UHGV virus genome: UHGV-0350163 | Source of the DNA: a virus | Length of the DNA stretch: 35,997 nt | Direction: 5' to 3' (one strand) | In this document: positions 25,175-35,527 of the stretch, piece by piece | Numbering within the stretch: the stretch's first letter is position 1 | Layout: the number at the start of each line of letters is the position of its first letter | Made by a program: the position numbers and the translations under genes | Notes under the pieces: model-generated | Seen by the model: the letters and a program-made list of their open reading frames with translations, nothing else | Databases searched by the model: none | Told to the model about the DNA's origin: nothing

Positions 25175-25642
25175 TTAATCAAAAAGCCCCACCTGGGTGG
25201 GGCTTTTCAGCGAAGTCTGTTTTTGTCGTCGGTGTATCAGCTGCCATGCGTACCGGTCTGAAATCCCGTAACGGGGACAGAGTAGTGCCAGCGCCTGCCG
25301 GTGTGAGCATCCGTCTTTTACATGCTGCTGTAAATCTGCCATAAAACGGGTGTTACGCAGGGCACGTAACGCATGATCGCAACGGGGAATGTAAAACGGC
25401 GCACCGCCAAGAAAGCGGATCAGTTTGTTGATTTCGTCTTCGGTCAGCACATCATGTAACAGGGCATGGACACCGCCGGTGCGTTCGGCGTGTGCGCCGG
25501 TTTTACCGCTTAACGTCACGCCACCAAAAGAACGGATTAACCGGGTCAGGGCGGGGAAGCCAATCACGCCAATCAGTTGCTGCACGGAATCGGGCAGCAG
25601 TGCCTGCGCATCGCGAAGATCTGTTTCACTGAAGGTCTGCAT
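25175..25642 (-). CDS. Mor/C-family transcriptional activator
   Basis: 155 aa; contains GGAPFYIP motif and C-terminal HTH-like segment (YGISDRYAWQLI) resembling Mu Mor/C (from memory). Only one such homologue seen. Confidence 0.75.
   Translation of the reverse strand: MQTFSETDLRDAQALLPDSVQQLIGVIGFPALTRLIRSFGGVTLSGKTGAHAERTGGVHALLHDVLTEDEINKLIRFLGGAPFYIPRCDHALRALRNTRFMADLQQHVKDGCSHRQALALLCPRYGISDRYAWQLIHRRQKQTSLKSPTQVGLFD
25181..25207 (-). terminator. A-tract / GC-rich hairpin / T-tract overlapping the 3' end of the Mor/C-like gene
   Basis: AAAAAGCCCCACC-TG-GGTGGGGCTTTT read from sequence; the minus-strand transcript would end within a few nt of the stop codon. Confidence 0.5.
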
Positions 25643-25740: not shown

Positions 25741-26244
25741 TTACTCTGGAATCTTGATGTTACAGGCTTTGATAAATTTATTAACAGCGGTTGTTGAACC
25801 TGTCGGTGTTACATTAAACGATGCGCCTCGTTCTTCACTCGGTTCTTTTACACCAGCTAAAACACGTTTTTGGGCTTTTCGAAGATAAGATAACAACTCT
25901 TTGATTTTTTGTTCGTCCTCTATTTTATAAATATACATTTTTTCATTTCGTGCAGCGAGTACCCCTGTGGTCTTTACTGCTGGAAATTCGTCTATCCTAA
26001 ATATTAAATCTTTTGATGAACCGAATAACGCAATGTTAACTTTATCTGTTTCTTTTGTAATACCAGCGAATAGTGAGTCATTCGAACAGTCTAAAGCAAT
26101 CCCAAAATCCATTGTTCCAATACCCACCATCATGGCTGTTTGTTGATCATCAAAAGCATCTTTTTGTACCCATGTGTGCCATTCAGCAACGGCAGGAAAA
26201 GACAAAATGAACGCTACTAAAAGAAAATACCGTTTTTTAATCAT
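25741..26244 (-). CDS. Secreted protein of unknown function (AT-rich moron)
   Basis: 167 aa with N-terminal signal peptide (MIKKRYFLLVAFILSFPAVA); strong SD AAGGAGGAG; ATG overlaps gemA stop (ATGA); coding sequence is markedly AT-rich. Confidence 0.7.
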   Translation of the reverse strand: MIKKRYFLLVAFILSFPAVAEWHTWVQKDAFDDQQTAMMVGIGTMDFGIALDCSNDSLFAGITKETDKVNIALFGSSKDLIFRIDEFPAVKTTGVLAARNEKMYIYKIEDEQKIKELLSYLRKAQKRVLAGVKEPSEERGASFNVTPTGSTTAVNKFIKACNIKIPE

Positions 26245-26639
26245 TTACTCCTCCTTCTTGAATCTTTAACCAGCGCCACCATCACCCCGAAAAGCTGTTC
26301 ATCCGTCAGCCATTCGATCACATGTTGCTTATACATGTGAGATGCCAGTCCTTCCGCATACCCCCAGGAACGACCGGCATCAGCCAGCAACGCTTCAATT
26401 TTGGATAATACCGATTTTCTGCTCATTGCAACACGGGGGCGGCGACCTTTACCGGCGGGTGCCTTGCGCGGGAATCCCTGTTCGTGCATGTATTCCCGGA
26501 TGATGCGCAGTTCATTAAGATTGCAGCGTGTGGTGCTGGTTTTACCGGTCAGGCGGGCCAGCGTCTGGCGATAAAGGGCATCATCCCACCCCAGATACGC
26601 CTGACCGGCTTTAATGGCCCCGATCATCTTTTTCAGCAT
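26241..26639 (-). CDS. gemA: GemA-like protein (Mu gp16-like)
   Basis: ORF track gives 26241..26738; start placed at internal MLKKMIGAIKAG; position upstream of the activator as in Mu. Confidence 0.6.
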   Translation of the reverse strand: MLKKMIGAIKAGQAYLGWDDALYRQTLARLTGKTSTTRCNLNELRIIREYMHEQGFPRKAPAGKGRRPRVAMSRKSVLSKIEALLADAGRSWGYAEGLASHMYKQHVIEWLTDEQLFGVMVALVKDSRRRSK

Positions 26640-26925
26640 GTTTGTTATCCTCAAAACGTACGGTAAAACGTGAAACGCCAATCCCTGACAAGAACGCGGC
26701 GGCACGATCAAGAGACAGCCACGTCTTGTAATCGCCACGGCGTTCCTGTAGAAAATAGGACACCCCAGCGCGGCGATTCACAGCGAAGAGGTGATACACA
26801 CCACCGAACCGCTGCACGACGAACTCATCCACGCCACCGCTTTCAGCCTGTTGCCTGAAAGCTGCCATTCCGATTTGTTCAATCTTCATAATGACCAAAA
26901 CACTACTTTTGGCAGACCAAAACAC
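26611..26925 (-). CDS. Hypothetical protein (start uncertain)
   Basis: ORF with GTG start at 26925 or ATG at 26889; 3' end overlaps gemA start. Confidence 0.3.
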   Translation of the reverse strand: MFWSAKSSVLVIMKIEQIGMAAFRQQAESGGVDEFVVQRFGGVYHLFAVNRRAGVSYFLQERRGDYKTWLSLDRAAAFLSGIGVSRFTVRFEDNKHAEKDDRGH

Positions 26926-26938
26926 ATGTTTTGGTCTG
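26913..26938. promoter_or_regulatory. Perfect 12-bp inverted repeat CAGACCAAAACA-CA-TGTTTTGGTCTG with a third half-site GACCAAAACA at 26893-26902; candidate operator
   Basis: Read directly; sits in the intergenic gap upstream of the gemA/moron unit. Confidence 0.45.
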
Positions 26939-26956
26939 CGTTTGATTACTGTTCAA

Positions 26957-27175
26957 TCAACCCGCGTAATCGGGGCCGTGTTCCCATCTGGCATCGAGTA
27001 TTTCCGTTCCATCTGTCCGGCATGGGTTATCAAGTGCCATTTTTCCGCACTCCCCGTACTCGACATCGACAAAATCAGCAATATCATTGTCCGTTGCGTT
27101 ATCAGGAACGTCGATTTCAACCGTTACGGTGATAGTTTTCATCAGGTTGTTACTCCGTGATTCAGAAAATTTCAT
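26957..27175 (-). CDS. Small acidic protein of unknown function
   Basis: 72 aa (or about 61 aa from MKTITVTV), rich in Asp/Glu; 8 nt downstream of the secreted-protein gene. Confidence 0.45.
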   Translation of the reverse strand: MKFSESRSNNLMKTITVTVEIDVPDNATDNDIADFVDVEYGECGKMALDNPCRTDGTEILDARWEHGPDYAG

Positions 27176-27183
27176 GCCGGAAC

Positions 27184-27594
27184 TCAGTATGTGAAATAGA
27201 CAGTTGCCACGCCGTTATAGTGATCAAACGACACGGCGTTTACCTCATAACTGGCCGGGAGCTTCGAACCAAGAACGTATCCGGGCCACGTTTTCCATGG
27301 AATTTCTCTGCTCTCACTGTCGCCATATACCGTACATCCCAGTGAGCCTACAGCTTCATAAGAACGCTTACCGCACGTTATGAACCCCAGATTTAGCTTA
27401 CTGCCCTTAACAGAAATCGGGAGAGCACTGGCTGATGCGTTAGCAGCGTCCTGCTCCTGTTGGCTTGCGATATTCGCAGAGTTCGCAGCAGCTGCGGCAG
27501 CCGTAGTCGCAGCGGCAGATGCCACAATAACTGCTGAAGCCTGTGCCTGTTGGGTAACGGTCAGCAATGCCGCCACAAAAACCATTTTCTTCAC
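27184..27594 (-). CDS. Secreted protein with Ala-rich low-complexity linker
   Basis: 136 aa, GTG start preceded by AGGAGGT; signal peptide MKKMVFVAALLTVTQQAQA, then Ala/Ser/Thr-rich segment and a ~75 aa C-terminal domain. Confidence 0.6.
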   Translation of the reverse strand: MKKMVFVAALLTVTQQAQASAVIVASAAATTAAAAAANSANIASQQEQDAANASASALPISVKGSKLNLGFITCGKRSYEAVGSLGCTVYGDSESREIPWKTWPGYVLGSKLPASYEVNAVSFDHYNGVATVYFTY

Positions 27595-27609
27595 CTGGCA
27601 CCTCCTTTA

Positions 27610-27783
27610 CATACCGTGATTTTTCCTGCGGTTTTGCGCCGCGCTGGGCTTTTTGCAACAGCTGTGCAACATCACCCCGCAACACCCCGTCAACCTCACT
27701 CGTCTGTTACTAATCCTCAACCATCGCCAGACCCCAACACCGTTTCTGCGAGCTAACAGAATTTTTGCCTTACGGTTTTTCAT
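27610..27783 (-). CDS. Small basic protein, paralogue B (58 aa), not in ORF track
   Basis: Hand-translated: MKNRKAKILLARRNGVGVWRWLRISNRRVRLTGCCGVMLHSCCKKPSAAQNRRKNHGM. ATG overlaps the stop of paralogue A (ATGA). Confidence 0.4.
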
Positions 27784-27956
27784 CGTACTGCGTACCCTTT
27801 CTTCCGCCTGTTCTGTGACGCAGTAGGCTTACGCTTTGCGGCAAAAGCCACCTGACCAAATGGATGGAGTACCGCTATCTTATGGTTGCTAATAACCAGC
27901 TCCACCACACGCACAGGCCGCTGTAAAAGAAGTCGTTTTGCTTTACGGTTTTTCAT
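27783..27956 (-). CDS. Small basic protein, paralogue A (58 aa), not in ORF track
   Basis: Hand-translated: MKNRKAKRLLLQRPVRVVELVISNHKIAVLHPFGQVAFAAKRKPTASQNRRKKGYAVR. AGGAG 9 nt upstream of ATG. First 24 nt nearly identical to paralogue B. Confidence 0.4.
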
Positions 27957-27960
27957 CGTT

Positions 27961-28149
27961 TCATTCTCCTGTATTTACTACTGACTCTGCACTGTCAGCC
28001 CTGCGGCGCTCCTGAAGTTCCAGCATTGCGGCCCGGAAATCCTGCCACCATTCCTCATCGGCAACGGGTGTGTTCCGTTCCAGCACCTTGTCCGCATCGG
28101 CAATCAGTCTGCTCAGACTCTTATCGCTTATTCTGGTTTGCTGGTTCAC
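27961..28149 (-). CDS. Small acidic hypothetical protein
   Basis: 62 aa ORF, translationally coupled to neighbours. Confidence 0.4.
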   Translation of the reverse strand: MNQQTRISDKSLSRLIADADKVLERNTPVADEEWWQDFRAAMLELQERRRADSAESVVNTGE

Positions 28150-28596: not shown

Positions 28597-29307
28597 TTAT
28601 CCCCTCCCCAGTGCCAGCGGTCTGTTGCTCTGACCATTAACTCCCTGATGCAGTCTGGCGTTTTTCCCGGCGATAAAACCGGCAGTAGCGGCAAACTCTG
28701 CACCCCGACACGCTTTAGCTGTGCGCATATCCCCGTCGCGCAGTCCTTTAGTGCTGTGCAGGTTCTTTCTGTAAAGCTCAAGGCGGCTTTTTTCTTCCGG
28801 GGATACGTCATACACCGCAATGACATCACGGGCACCAAAGACCCAGCCTTCGCAGAACTGGTCGCCACGGGCTACCCGCGTGGACGGACCACAACGTTTG
28901 CAGTGTTTATCCTGATATTTCTTGCGCTCTGCCATCATCTGACGGGAAAGCACATCAAACGCGTAGGCCGCAATTTCCGGGCGGCTGTCAGGACCATAAA
29001 AACGAACGTAACGTTTGAGTGAACCAGAAGCCCGGTATTCGCCGGATATGTAACACTCGACACCGAAGGCTTTACAGACCAGGTCACACAGGATGTGCAT
29101 ATAACGCGGCGGTGTACTGGCATCACTCGGCGCACCCGCGCTGGCAGCTTCCTGAATGTCGAACAATTCAGCGTCGTTTTCGCTGATACCATGCTGGCGC
29201 ATATAAGCCTGGGCTTTTGCAATAGCGTTAGCGGCTTCTTCCGGGCTTGATGTCCCTCTTGCAAGGCGTAACAGCTTTTTAATTTTGGCGATGTATTTAT
29301 TTTTCAT
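28597..29307 (-). CDS. Early-region protein with DUF2786-like N-terminus
   Basis: 236 aa; N-terminus KIKKLLRLARGTSSPEEAANAIAKAQAYMRQHGI resembles a prophage DUF family (from memory); Cys-rich central part (CKRCGP...FCEGW). Confidence 0.5.
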   Translation of the reverse strand: MKNKYIAKIKKLLRLARGTSSPEEAANAIAKAQAYMRQHGISENDAELFDIQEAASAGAPSDASTPPRYMHILCDLVCKAFGVECYISGEYRASGSLKRYVRFYGPDSRPEIAAYAFDVLSRQMMAERKKYQDKHCKRCGPSTRVARGDQFCEGWVFGARDVIAVYDVSPEEKSRLELYRKNLHSTKGLRDGDMRTAKACRGAEFAATAGFIAGKNARLHQGVNGQSNRPLALGRG

Positions 29308-29992: not shown

Positions 29993-30637
29993 TTAAACCC
30001 CTGCAATATCAAGCGGGATTGCGCGGTATTCATCAGAATCACCAACGCGCTCATACACACGAATATAGCTCTTGCTGCCAATCACCTGGACGGCTTCACC
30101 AATCAGCATCATGGCGTTATTCCAGCGTTCGTCCTCAATTTCGAGGCGACGCAGGGCCAGAACGCGCCCTGTGTTAATGTTGCCTTCCTTGTCCGTGCTG
30201 AATGCCTCGCTAATGATGGCTTTAATTTCAGGGCGCGCACCTTCCGTCCAGTCAGCTAGGCAATCATCAATCAGCGACTTCGCGGTCTGAATGCGTTCAT
30301 CAAACGCGATACGGTCCTGCATGGCGCGCTGAATCTTGTATCGCCCGTCAAAGCTGTAAAGCGTGATATTGCCTTTTTTGCCGCCTTTCACAGCGCCGTA
30401 TTTCTCCGCCGACAGGTCAATAAATGCCTGGATATCACCAAACGCACGCAGTTTCAGTTCCCGCAGCGAGGCGGAGGCAGCAATCACCATCTCCACAAGC
30501 TCACCGACCAGCTGCTCGCGGTCGCGGTCAATATCTTTGATAAGGCTTTCAGGTGTCATTACGCCACGGGCATCCACCCAGTAACCTTCAGGCGCTTGAG
30601 TTTTCGTGTATTGCTTAACTTTATTTTCAGTCGTCAT
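29993..30637 (-). CDS. Early-region protein (DUF3164-like)
   Basis: 214 aa ORF; family assignment from memory only. Confidence 0.5.
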   Translation of the reverse strand: MTTENKVKQYTKTQAPEGYWVDARGVMTPESLIKDIDRDREQLVGELVEMVIAASASLRELKLRAFGDIQAFIDLSAEKYGAVKGGKKGNITLYSFDGRYKIQRAMQDRIAFDERIQTAKSLIDDCLADWTEGARPEIKAIISEAFSTDKEGNINTGRVLALRRLEIEDERWNNAMMLIGEAVQVIGSKSYIRVYERVGDSDEYRAIPLDIAGV

Positions 30638-31506: not shown

Positions 31507-31525
31507 TCAGTGAATTAACATTTCT
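31507..31525. repeat. 19-bp perfect direct repeat, copy 2 (encodes the last codons and stop of B)
   Basis: Identical to 31134-31152. Confidence 0.9.
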
Positions 31526-32400
31526 GCGAATTTATCTATGGCCTGCACACTGACCGGCGCATCGCTGATATCGCAAATCCGGTACACACCGCGCGCCAGT
31601 TTGAACAGGCGGCGGGTATTACCCAGCGAGCGCGCGTAAAGCGCCTCGCTGATTTCCGGTTCTGCTGCTTCCGGCATCAGCCCGGTGGCTATCTGGTTAA
31701 AATCTTCCTGCGCCAGCGTGTCGCCCAGGTTAAGCGCCAGCGCCACGCGGCTGTATAACTGCGCAAATTCACCACGACGCCCCTTGAGATTAATCAGAAG
31801 ACGAGGCATACCCGCCAGGACAACCCCGATACCCGCTTTATCATGCAGACGGCGCAGAACCTCCAGTGCGCGATAGGGGAGCAGTTCAGCTTCGTCCACC
31901 ATCAGCAGACGACCGGAATCACGCAGTTCGCGCACACAGGCATCAATCAGTTCGTGAATGTTGCCGCGAACCTTTACCCCCAGCTGGCGGCACAACTCCT
32001 CAAGCAGTGTCCTGGCTGTATAGCCCGGGTCAGCCTCAATCAGGACCGCATCCCGGTTTCTGGCTGCGTATTCACGCAGAATCATTGTTTTGCCAAGACC
32101 AGCTGCGCCATACAGTACACAGATTTCACATTCCAGGTGAGCGTAGGCCAGCACCTCCAGTCCTTTGGCAGCCATACCGGTGGCAACAAATTTCGCTTTA
32201 ATACGGCGGCTGTTTTCCTTTTCCCGCTCACGGGTCACAAAGGCAGAAATGCGTTCTTCAATATCAGCCATATCGCCCTGATATTTACCCTGTAAATACT
32301 GGTTGATAACGGCGCTGCTACGACCAATAGCACGGGCGACGTGGGTCTGCGTATAGCCGCGACGGGCCATTACGTCATTTAATTGCGTAATTAAACTCAT
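31507..32400 (-). CDS. B: Transposition ATPase B (MuB-like, AAA+)
   Basis: 297 aa; N-terminal HTH-like region, Walker A (GAAGLGKT) and Walker B-like (LLMVDEAE); directly downstream of the transposase. Confidence 0.9.
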   Translation of the reverse strand: MSLITQLNDVMARRGYTQTHVARAIGRSSAVINQYLQGKYQGDMADIEERISAFVTREREKENSRRIKAKFVATGMAAKGLEVLAYAHLECEICVLYGAAGLGKTMILREYAARNRDAVLIEADPGYTARTLLEELCRQLGVKVRGNIHELIDACVRELRDSGRLLMVDEAELLPYRALEVLRRLHDKAGIGVVLAGMPRLLINLKGRRGEFAQLYSRVALALNLGDTLAQEDFNQIATGLMPEAAEPEISEALYARSLGNTRRLFKLARGVYRICDISDAPVSVQAIDKFAEMLIH

Positions 32401-32418: not shown

Positions 32419-34461
32419 TTAACGGTTGTTTGTGCCGTTTTTCTTTAAATTGCGCTCGCGTTCAGATGCGAATAAATAAAGTTCTTCTTTTTCCTTTTTC
32501 TCCGGGCGCTCCAGTCCATATCCCAGATTAAAGTCTGGCTTCTGCGTAATAGCCGGGGTAAGCTCGCGTTTAGCCTCTTCGATTTTCTGCGTGGCCCGTG
32601 CAATGCGGCCCCTGACGCGTTTCTCCAGTTTTTGTTCGATAACTGGTTTAGCGAAGGCATCAACCTTGTTACCGTTCCAGATGGCATCGCAGATATAAGA
32701 GCCATCAGCCCGCCGGACAATGACGCTGTTTGCATCATGAATATCGTAACTGACCCTGACTTCATTCCCGTGCTCTGCGGCCAGATCATATGAGTAATAA
32801 ATATTGTTGAATAACTGAATTTCCCCGCGAAATGTTTTGCGCGTCACTTCCGGTCTGAACATTTCATGCAGTTCTTCCGGCGACAGGAAATCAATTTCAA
32901 CATTCTGCTCTTTTATCAGTTTCCGGCGATACGCTGCCGGGCTGTAATATTCGCCATCCTCTTTGCGGGGAAGGCTGCTGTGTGGCCGGTTGTTATAGCG
33001 TCTGACCTCCAGCTCTATGGCCGCCATCAGTTGCTCAAAGGTGGGGATTTCATCCCTCGCCTTAACCTGCCGTTTTGTCAGTTCTTTCCCTTTGTGGGTG
33101 GCCTTAATGGCCGACTGCATAATCCGTTGCTGCATCATTACGGTTTCCTTGTCTGCATCCTTTGCGCAGTACGTCTGGAAACTCAGTGCCACGTCTTTGG
33201 GTATTCCTTTGTTTGCCCGTTCTATTACCCCGCGCCCCTGCGGGTTACCCGGTATCCCCGTGTGATGCTCCACACCCAGCCGGGGCAGAATCCCGGTAAT
33301 ATCGGCATCAAGCACCCGGTTTTTTTCGCCGCCCCCGTTATCGGAATAATAAATCAGCGGTATCCCGTGCTGTGCCATGCCGTAACGCAACGCATCAGCA
33401 ACGGCTATCACGTTTTCCGACAGGGACAGTGACCAGCCCACAACAAAGCGCTGCCCCGCATCCATAACCAGCGTCACTTCTGGCCGGAAAATATTGCCGG
33501 TCAGGGGGTTAAACGCGGTCATTTTCATACAGTGACCATCCCCGACCCATACCGCATTAACCGGTAATGATGTCCACTCGCGCCGCACAAAGGGATTGAG
33601 CGAACGCCAGGCTGAACCTGTGGAGCGGAAACGCTCCTTAACAATCACCGGGACGCTGCTTAACACTCGTCTTACTGCGTGAACTGAAGGCAGTGCCGCC
33701 AGCATTCCCGCATCATTCGCGTGTTTCTCATGCCACCAGGCTGAAAACTCGCGATAAGCGTATTCAACGGTCGGGCGCTTCCATGAGCGATAGAACATAA
33801 AGAAATCGCTCAGCCACCAGACCTGCTCCCACGGAGTTCCCTTATGATGACCGGGAGCCAGTAACGCCAGTAACTGATTGGCATCACCGCGCGCCATCAC
33901 CCAGCTGGAGTACCAGCTATCCAGGCTGCCGGTGCTGACACCGGTTCGCTTTCCCTGACGTGCATTTGCAGTATTCGCTGCTTCGATAATGCGGTCAGGT
34001 AACGCCCCCATGCGCACACCATCAACGATGTGCTTTAACGCGGCCTTCCTGGTCATTCCGGCGTATTCACGCAGTTTATGCACTTCAGTAGCCAGCAATA
34101 TCCGCGCATCAGCAATGGCCTTTTGCTTGTCGGTCAGTGCCTGGACTTCGCGTAATGCCAGTTCCGGGCATTTGACCATCACTTCCAGTTCATCGCGAAC
34201 GGCGACGTTTTTAACTGCCTTCTGCTCAACCACGGCGGGCAGTTGTGCATCTTCCAGGACCTGATGAGTCAGGCGCTTACGTAAAACTTTCTGCGCTTCA
34301 GCGGGCAGGCTGTCGATGTGATACTCGAATGCTTTTGTGCCTTCACGCTTGCGCTTCCATTCCGGGTGCGTCTCTGTGATCCGATTGAGCGTCCATCGCA
34401 CCCCCTGAACTGTACCGGGCAAACGAGGAAGACCGGCCAGCTCATTGGCTGAATAAAACAT
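32419..34461 (-). CDS. A: DDE transposase A (MuA-like)
   Basis: 680 aa; N-terminus (ANELAGLPRLPGTVQGVRW...IDSLPAEAQ) and the central DDE core (WVGDGH...DNGGG) resemble MuA (from memory); ATG overlaps ner stop (TAATG). Confidence 0.9.
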   Translation of the reverse strand: MFYSANELAGLPRLPGTVQGVRWTLNRITETHPEWKRKREGTKAFEYHIDSLPAEAQKVLRKRLTHQVLEDAQLPAVVEQKAVKNVAVRDELEVMVKCPELALREVQALTDKQKAIADARILLATEVHKLREYAGMTRKAALKHIVDGVRMGALPDRIIEAANTANARQGKRTGVSTGSLDSWYSSWVMARGDANQLLALLAPGHHKGTPWEQVWWLSDFFMFYRSWKRPTVEYAYREFSAWWHEKHANDAGMLAALPSVHAVRRVLSSVPVIVKERFRSTGSAWRSLNPFVRREWTSLPVNAVWVGDGHCMKMTAFNPLTGNIFRPEVTLVMDAGQRFVVGWSLSLSENVIAVADALRYGMAQHGIPLIYYSDNGGGEKNRVLDADITGILPRLGVEHHTGIPGNPQGRGVIERANKGIPKDVALSFQTYCAKDADKETVMMQQRIMQSAIKATHKGKELTKRQVKARDEIPTFEQLMAAIELEVRRYNNRPHSSLPRKEDGEYYSPAAYRRKLIKEQNVEIDFLSPEELHEMFRPEVTRKTFRGEIQLFNNIYYSYDLAAEHGNEVRVSYDIHDANSVIVRRADGSYICDAIWNGNKVDAFAKPVIEQKLEKRVRGRIARATQKIEEAKRELTPAITQKPDFNLGYGLERPEKKEKEELYLFASERERNLKKNGTNNR

Positions 34462-34879: not shown

Positions 34880-35527
34880 ATGACCAGAAATGATGATGCT
34901 TTTTCTTTTGTCGACCGGGGAAAAGAAAGTTTCAGAGAGCGTTTAGTAAAGCTGATAGGTAATCGCAGTGTCAGAACTGCTGCGAGTGATTGGGGAATCC
35001 CCCCTTCAACCTTAAACAACTACATTCATAAAGGAACTGAGCCTTCTTTTAAAATAGCTTGCCTTATCTCAGATAAAGAGCAAGTGAGCTTAAATTGGCT
35101 CGCTTACGGTAAGGAACCCACCACCAAAGAAGGTTCTCTATCAAATCAAACAGCGCAGCCTTCTCCCGATATTACAAACGAGCTAGTTAACGAGTTATTG
35201 AAAAGAGCGTCCACAGAAGTTAAGGAGCAACTGATAAGTGCAATATGCGATATGGGCATTAAAGGAATCTTGGAACGCCTACAGCAACCAACCAGGCAAA
35301 CTAAGCAGACCGACAGCGACCTGGACGAACAAGAGACTGCCATCAGAAGCCTAAACATCAGGGAATCGCTTAAAGACGCTATTTGCATGGCATTGGCTGG
35401 TAATGAAGAAACTGATAAAGAGATTTTGCGACGCATCGAATCTCGTGCACGGACTGGGTCGCCAGGTGGTGAGACCATTGCCACGCTGGAGCAAGAAACG
35501 AAACCTGTAAGCAAAAAACCAGCATGA
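34880..35527 (+). CDS. Prophage repressor, CI-like with XRE-type HTH
   Basis: 215 aa; N-terminal HTH (SVRTAASDWGIPPSTLNNYIHKG...LNWLAYG); only plus-strand gene, divergent from ner. No S24 peptidase-like C-terminal domain recognised. Confidence 0.75.
   Translation: MTRNDDAFSFVDRGKESFRERLVKLIGNRSVRTAASDWGIPPSTLNNYIHKGTEPSFKIACLISDKEQVSLNWLAYGKEPTTKEGSLSNQTAQPSPDITNELVNELLKRASTEVKEQLISAICDMGIKGILERLQQPTRQTKQTDSDLDEQETAIRSLNIRESLKDAICMALAGNEETDKEILRRIESRARTGSPGGETIATLEQETKPVSKKPA

Follow-up and report, generated by a model that had tools for sequence, protein, structure and literature searches.

Do four small genes packed end to end in the early operon of a Mu-like prophage make up one functional system, or are they brought together by the operon that they share? 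The window, by which we mean the whole 35,997-nucleotide stretch of viral DNA that was analysed (UHGV virus genome UHGV-0350163), is a Mu-like E. coli prophage with its early operon genes on the minus strand, and its nearest DNA relatives are prophages within E. coli chromosomes. A preliminary description read two basic paralogues, a secreted protein and an acidic protein as one co-expressed module. We consider it probable that the locus is instead a hypervariable early-operon slot, holding three independently inherited accessory units (the basic gene pair bA-bB, the exported-protein gene sec and the acidic-protein gene acid) and not one system.

The locus within the early operon

The four genes sit between the MuB-like and DUF2786 genes on one side and gemA and mor on the other, all on the minus strand, so that the features are listed here from high to low coordinates.

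34880-35527, opposite strand to the early genes: repressor
32419-34461, minus strand: MuA transposase, matching Mu-transpos_C and HTH_Tnp_Mu_1
31507-32400, minus strand: MuB-like AAA protein
29993-30637, minus strand: DUF3164 protein
28597-29307, minus strand: DUF2786 protein
27961-28149, minus strand: u62, 62 aa, phrog_14672, directly before bA on the transcribed strand (higher coordinates)
27780-27956, minus strand: bA, 58 aa, pI 12.0, K+R 16, D+E 1, phrog_1380 (E = 4e-23)
27607-27783, minus strand: bB, 58 aa, pI 12.0, K+R 16, D+E 0, phrog_1380 (E = 4e-28)
27600-27607, minus strand: Shine-Dalgarno sequence of sec, AAGGAGGT, 5 nt upstream of the GTG start
27184-27594, minus strand: sec, 136 aa, GTG start, phrog_8805 (E = 2e-81)
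26957-27175, minus strand: longest ORF of acid, 72 aa, pI 4.1, with an ATG 8 nt beyond the stop of sec
26957-27142, minus strand: acid from Met12, 61 aa, pI 4.05, 15 D+E versus 4 K+R, phrog_8773 (E = 8e-47, the profile aligning from residue 12)
26912-26939: perfect palindrome GCAGACCAAAACA-TG-TGTTTTGGTCTGC with 13-nt arms
26611-26889, minus strand: d92, 92 aa, phrog_7844, a backbone gene that overlaps gemA
26241-26738, or 26241-26642 from the likely start, minus strand: GemA
25741-26244: 167-aa gene, GC 0.36-0.38, with a terminator
25175-25642, minus strand: Mor

A tail sheath gene lies beyond mor. With MuA, the MuB-like ATPase, DUF3164, DUF2786, GemA and Mor all on the same strand, the semi-essential early location proposed in the preliminary description holds, and the sequence bears out its four ORFs and its palindrome. 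In a PHROG profile search the four proteins matched phage families over their full length, with E values from 4e-23 to 2e-81, and ORFs in other frames or on the other strand gave no matches. Families 1380, 8805 and 8773 are catalogued only as "unknown function". The earlier remark that the cluster fits no known system also stood, as none of the four proteins had a match in Pfam, NCBIfam, Rfam or, at E values up to 0.1, among the PADLOC models. Rfam returned nothing at gathering score in the window and nothing at E values up to 1 in 26800-28050, PDB profile searches with all three families were empty or non-significant, and literature searches on small exo-xis ORFs and on Mu-like prophages turned up no mention of these proteins. 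The gene families are already catalogued, and mosaic early regions are well known.

The start of bB overlaps the stop of bA (ATGA), and the stop of bB overlaps the Shine-Dalgarno sequence of sec. No promoter-like or terminator-like site was found on the minus strand of 26957-27975, and since no such site separates the genes, the proposed co-expression is plausible; the four genes are probably co-transcribed early after induction. The tight coupling that had been put forward as the sign of a module is real as spacing. As a sign of a module it does not discriminate, because the neighbouring operon genes are packed alike: DUF2786/u75/u74/u62 and d92/GemA/the 167-aa gene likewise abut or overlap by 4 nt. 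GC content in the cluster (0.46-0.55) is like that of the flanks, and the cluster shows neither the promoter and terminator of its own that define a moron nor the deviant composition that often goes with them.

The palindrome had been described as an operator-like site at the end of the cluster. It is perfect, but it belongs to the backbone upstream of d92, the gene that marks the promoter-distal edge (lower coordinates) of the variable slot. A third GACCAAAAC copy stands at 26893-26901, and with it the palindrome makes up the conserved leader of d92, which starts at 26889. The palindrome is found upstream of d92 in 13 Mu-like loci regardless of the preceding gene, and the site, together with the 60 nt that follow it, shows no difference between any of the aligned Mu-like loci. 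We rejected a role as operator or terminator of the cluster, since the site is kept with the downstream gene whatever precedes it. Its RNA fold is strong (z = -5.1). It is not a canonical terminator of the transcribed strand, because the minus strand continues after the stem with CAAAAGUAG and has no U-tract there; a terminator-like score is obtained on the non-coding plus strand alone. RNA processing or stability, control of d92 translation and protein binding are candidate roles.

Distribution of the genes and states of the slot

Conservation of the gene neighbourhood across prophages had been proposed as a check of the module. It was not found for the four genes; only bA-bB is kept as a unit. 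In a set of 5,426 complete E. coli genomes, 539 contain DNA of the basic pair (369 chromosomal and 261 plasmid places), 64 the sec gene, 6 an intact acid gene and 58 the backbone (d92 plus palindrome). All four genes occur together in 6 of the 58 genomes with the backbone (at least 98% coverage of the whole stretch), in which the array recurs at 96-97% identity. The units are also found apart in IMG/VR: 39 of 50 sec loci are without a basic gene within about 4 kb, sec adjoins just 2 of 80 basic-pair loci, and it is missing from 3 of 6 acid loci. Eighteen IMG/VR loci share the same Mu-like backbone; any basic gene is present in 17 of these, sec in 9, acid in 3, both bA and bB in 2, and all four genes in none. 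The combinations encountered there are pair and sec; single basic gene and sec; basic gene, sec and acid; basic gene and acid without sec; basic gene alone; and sec alone. The four-gene combination is one rare state of the slot. Within the Mu-like lineage a basic gene lies directly before sec in 8 of 9 loci, and acid or a remnant of it follows sec; a lineage-specific functional link among these neighbors may exist in Mu-like phages.

An alignment of five slot variants reveals how such states could be related. The fuller array runs basic gene(s), sec, acid, an 85-aa Cys-rich membrane protein, palindrome, d92, and the window is without exactly the membrane-protein gene, a clean absence. In two loci (L158 and L144) acid is cut down to its first 14-16 codons by a deletion between GAT(A/T)ACGC repeats, which brings GATAACGC next to GATTACGC. 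A further locus (L152) has no sec and its basic gene runs directly up to acid, and both flanks share an AATCAC stretch, a junction consistent with a microhomology deletion via AATCAC. These variants look like deletion derivatives of the fuller array, and because single-gene losses leave the neighbors intact, the four genes appear to be individually dispensable and not mutually dependent. According to the mosaic reading the slot would lie in a Pe-driven "semi-essential" operon, the units would be transcribed together only through the shared operon, and variants would arise by whole-gene exchange and by single-gene deletions mediated by short repeats.

The same variants could be read in another way, namely that sec, acid and the 85-aa membrane protein are an ancestral, lineage-specific and envelope-directed trio of which the window holds a decayed copy. 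L148 and strain B1172 have the order sec-acid-membrane protein, L152 has acid and the membrane protein in that order without sec, the sec/acid junction is kept in 4 of 4 aligned sec-containing Mu-like loci (acid being intact or a remnant), and the window differs by a clean deletion. We nevertheless judge this history unlikely, as lambdoid, P1-like and virulent phages carry sec with neither acid nor the membrane protein, acid homologues occur in Klebsiella- and Salmonella-type contexts without either neighbor, and every one of the three has been lost on its own.

That the four genes form one co-expressed functional module, with parts that need one another, is very improbable. The claim can draw on the tight or overlapping spacing on a single strand, on the array shared by six complete genomes, and on the intact acid gene, which lies within the full four-gene array in 6 of 6 complete E. 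coli genomes that carry it. However, spacing of this kind is a property of the entire operon, and the reading is largely refuted by distribution: the units are scattered independently, the outcome that the preliminary description had itself named as refuting the module, with the unequal genome counts given above, they occur apart in other phage types, every combination exists within one backbone, and single-gene deletions leave the other genes intact. A caution follows for similar loci: genes packed tightly in a phage early operon need not make up a functional system, and here neighborhood statistics dismantle the proposed one.

Prophage-borne secreted proteins are often conversion factors, and an exported protein is encoded in the cluster. 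It could on these grounds be lysogenic-conversion cargo, expressed from the prophage to the benefit of the host (e.g. serum resistance, or exclusion in the lysogen). We find this highly unlikely, since the coding strand shows no promoter-like or terminator-like site belonging to the cluster, the composition matches the surrounding operon and is unlike that of the low-GC 167-aa gene, and sec is carried by a virulent phage as well and is translationally coupled within early operons elsewhere.

Candidate roles of the three units

Products of bA and bB share 44% identity (BLASTP E = 3e-10), and the genes form a conserved two-gene unit, with fixed order and overlapping stop and start in unrelated phages. 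Among 90 clusters the tandem pair is found in 82, a triple in 1 and a single copy in 7 (related loci); the spacing within pairs is 173-179 nt with the A-type copy first. Copies of bA that are 98% identical occur in Stx, P1-like and other phages. In TL-2011b, RCS47 and phiV10 the pair adjoins ead/Ea22-like, DUF551 and ASCH genes. A third small basic ORF (phrog_13831, C-terminus RRAAKKRKRRRTKR) precedes the pair in 66 of 83 distinct contexts, again with an ATGA overlap; it is absent from the window, and u62 takes the place held in most other phages by the third basic ORF, "X". A contig scan at one genome per species that used only the pattern MKNRKAKI confirmed no candidate and was uninformative.

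As a separate observation, the basic pair moves among four unrelated types of temperate phage (its hosts are Stx/lambdoid, P1-like, phiV10-like and Mu-like genomes) and reaches about 10% of E. coli genomes.

Several features indicate that bA and bB are real protein genes under selection at the protein level. ORF length stays at 58-63 aa across the 90 units while the middles diverge to about 40% identity, within basic subfamilies dN/dS lies at 0.2-0.5 and third-position changes are in excess, and the conserved Arg, Lys, Ala and Gln residues use varied codons (AGG, CGC and AGA for Arg), in part through switches between codon families. The motifs MKNRKAK and (S/T)A(A/S)QNR(W/R)K are conserved, and the pair's RNA shows no more folding than shuffled sequences do (z = -0.34). 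It is extremely unlikely that the ORFs are incidental to a tandem DNA or RNA repeat (a regulatory RNA, binding sites or a recombination linker): annotation is inconsistent, with PGAP and phage records often calling one of the pair, a few frameshifted variants exist, conserved ends around a variable middle resemble recombination linkers, and A-type and B-type copies do reassort (the window combines a 98%-typical bA with an unusual bB), but the codon evidence and the folding, along with the absence of an Rfam match, speak against a structured RNA and against a simple repeat.

As bA and bB each carry a net charge of about +15 and have no acidic partner, nucleic-acid binding would be their most likely activity, an assignment that is tentative at best.

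The description of sec as a secreted protein with an Ala-rich linker and a strong ribosome-binding site agrees with what we found, as the predicted signal peptide, the spacer and AAGGAGGT are all present. The signal peptide comprises residues 1-19 (MKK-MVFVAALLTV-TQQAQA, followed by S), an Ala/Gln/Asn-rich spacer extends to about residue 60, and a C-terminal alpha/beta domain covers approximately residues 66-136, in which Cys74 and Cys87 are invariant. Alignments show AxA-type signal peptides throughout the family, divergent homologues included, together with a variable spacer and a conserved domain, about 70 residues long, with TVYFxY as its terminal strand. The predicted signal peptide and the invariant Cys pair support a Sec-exported periplasmic protein, and early expression is supported as well. 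The Shine-Dalgarno junction is kept where another basic gene precedes sec.

The sec family is small, 1.8 billion representatives having yielded about 10 clusters at 50% identity, and it is phage-borne. Proteins of 850-2,000 aa that matched the domain were discarded as repeat or immunoglobulin artefacts, and a contig scan at one genome per species matched one stray contig. In lambdoid early-left operons sec is embedded and translationally coupled, next to yfdPQR-type and ead/Ea22-like genes; it is also found on P1-like plasmids and in the virulent vequintavirus Av-05, and a relative with 48% identity occurs in an unrelated metagenomic phage. Outside the Mu-like lineage, i.e. in lambdoid, P1-like and virulent phages, homology ends 19 nt past the sec stop.

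With a shallow alignment (full-length homologues of 69-96% identity) AlphaFold2 gave a useless model of sec (pLDDT 51); with a deeper alignment residues 70-136 reached a pLDDT of about 85-95. The resulting domain, in the order four strands, one helix, two strands, is modelled with confidence and would contain a disulfide (C74, C87). Against the PDB the sequence profile of the domain found no match and the best Foldseek hit had E = 0.13, and a BFVD structure search with sec returned one homologue and nothing else. The invariant C-terminal YFxY was considered as an outer-membrane beta-signal or a DegS-type PDZ ligand; we rejected both ideas, since in some homologues the chain continues beyond the final Tyr and the model shows this segment as a beta-strand. 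As a product of early lytic growth, sec would most likely act on the cell envelope, and superinfection exclusion or protection against lysis from without are possible roles. Such a role, which localisation and timing suggest by analogy for a protein with no fold relative, is possible and rather doubtful.

The acidic protein had been placed 8 nt beyond sec. The ORF with an ATG at that distance exists and its product is acidic, but the likely start is Met12. The Met12 ATG at 27142 has GGAG 10 nt upstream, and since this is where the PHROG profile, all homologues and the gene as annotated by PGAP in strain B1172 begin, and the acid gene of L152 is intact without the upstream ATG, the protein most likely has 61 aa and the ATG at 27175 is probably unused. 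The family is rare (Escherichia, Salmonella, Klebsiella); its members are conserved in the N-terminal half (MKTITVTVEIDVPDNA..DI.DFVDVEYG) and vary in the C-terminal one. Among solved structures in the PDB there was no relative at E values up to 10, and no solved DNA mimic. The protein is small and highly acidic, as are DNA-mimic anti-defence proteins, and in the cytoplasm it might act as a DNA-mimic-type inhibitor of a host enzyme that handles DNA. Size and charge make this a lead only, and one that we hold with reserve.

A bolder, joint reading would make the basic pair, often with phrog_13831, an undescribed two- or three-protein nucleic-acid-binding effector (e.g. an RNA-binding device for host takeover or anti-defence), and/or make sec the founder of a class of periplasmic factors for superinfection exclusion with a new fold. 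We regard it as rather unlikely.

Comparison with known systems

This locus offers three leads, the first of them the most promising: an under-annotated pair of basic mini-proteins present in roughly one E. coli genome in ten, a phage-restricted exported protein with a confidently predicted domain and no significant match to a solved structure, and a rare small acidic protein with the size and charge typical of DNA mimics. Each of these might turn out to act in host takeover or anti-defence.

As in the semi-essential region of Mu, the cluster lies between transposition genes and gemA/mor, among many tiny, packed and dispensable early genes. It also resembles the lambdoid "ea" or exo-xis regions, with which cargo is shared: ead/Ea22-like, DUF551 and ASCH genes adjoin it in other phages, and similar small early ORFs are described in the exo-xis literature (PMC8614690). 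It differs from the named regions of Mu and lambda in that the four proteins have no match in Pfam, NCBIfam or solved structures, a comparison in which kil, gam, Orf60a/61/63/73 and Ea22 were not taken singly; a tblastn search of phage records with bA gave no lambda record among the matches listed.

Periplasmic early exclusion proteins have been described (PMC7677548, PMC9586334). In being a small early phage protein with predicted export across the inner membrane, sec is like T4 Spackle and T5 Llp, a functional analogy only. It is unlike them in having no similarity of sequence or fold to solved structures, Spackle-like similarity included, and it is not a lipoprotein, whereas Llp is.

The acid protein departs from the DNA mimics in having two Cys and no homology to a solved protein, and in its N-terminal half a beta-strand and then an acidic segment seem to be present instead of a coiled coil. 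For T7 gp5.9, DNA mimicry has been tied to a small size and a strongly acidic character (PMC9836394), and with about 60 aa, a pI of about 4, a net charge of about -11, an early phage gene and no signal peptide, the putative inhibitor resembles the class of T7 gp5.9, lambda Gam and Ocr.

Deletions in and around the acidic gene

In many relatives the gene for the 61-aa acidic protein (acid) is reduced to its first 14-16 codons, and the deletion junction fuses the near-repeats GATAACGC and GATTACGC. Judged from the sequences, this joining of near-repeats suggests that acid has decayed repeatedly through short-repeat deletion. Relatives have a gene for a membrane protein in the stretch that separates acid from the palindrome; this gene is absent from the window at ~26945, where a clean deletion follows directly after ...TACGCGGG.

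L158 3828-4012 and L144 3555-4012: truncated acid gene, compared with window 26957-27142
L001 2654-2905 and L144 3633-3920: Cys-rich protein of 83-95 aa with N-terminal membrane anchor (P0152, P0157)
Window 27060-27087, plus strand: sigma-70-like site TCGACA-16-TATCAT, antisense, inside acid

The antisense site, the only sigma-70-like one within the cluster, is probably due to chance, since such sites are fewer in the region than expected from shuffling.

Flanking region

Three copies of GACCAAAAC are present in window 26893-26939; two make up the palindrome, and the third ends 4 nt upstream of the start codon of d92, the backbone gene that overlaps gemA. The three copies could form alternative hairpins (RNA fold z = -5.1), and the repeat region is a possible candidate for translational control of d92/gemA.

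Further along, the gene between gemA and mor has a GC content of 0.36-0.38 vs ~0.52 in its surroundings, and another gene occupies this position in strain B1172. The phrog_19473 gene looks like a separate, low-GC moron.

Window 25741-26244, minus strand: 167-aa protein with signal peptide, phrog_19473
Window 25730-25712, minus strand: strong terminator-like hairpin and T6 run, after the 167-aa gene

The basic ORFs and their upstream neighbor

The basic family is systematically under-annotated: the PGAP (B1172), TL-2011b and RCS47 records each annotate one ORF per tandem basic pair and omit the other, leaving un-annotated gaps of ~175 nt beside the called ORF. Some genomes encode basic-ORF fusions, P0080 (102 aa) and P0124 (123 aa), the partner being a truncated ead/Ea22 N-terminus in one and a third basic ORF in another; such fusions show that deletions and frameshifts occur at these junctions.

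L001 3737-3913; L138 2334-2522 and 2700-2871; L139: under-annotated basic pairs
Related loci, e.g. L117 and L150 3581-3754: third basic ORF, phrog_13831

In 66 of 83 distinct contexts this small third ORF (57-60 aa, C-terminus RRAAKKRKRRRTKR) comes just before the pair and overlaps it by ATGA. The window lacks it, and u62 (27961-28149, minus strand), a 62-aa gene, stands in the same place. The u62 product resembles longer DUF551-type proteins over their first ~55 residues. On sequence grounds u62 may be a detached N-terminal module; in other phages, longer DUF551-type proteins with a u62-like N-terminus adjoin the basic pair.
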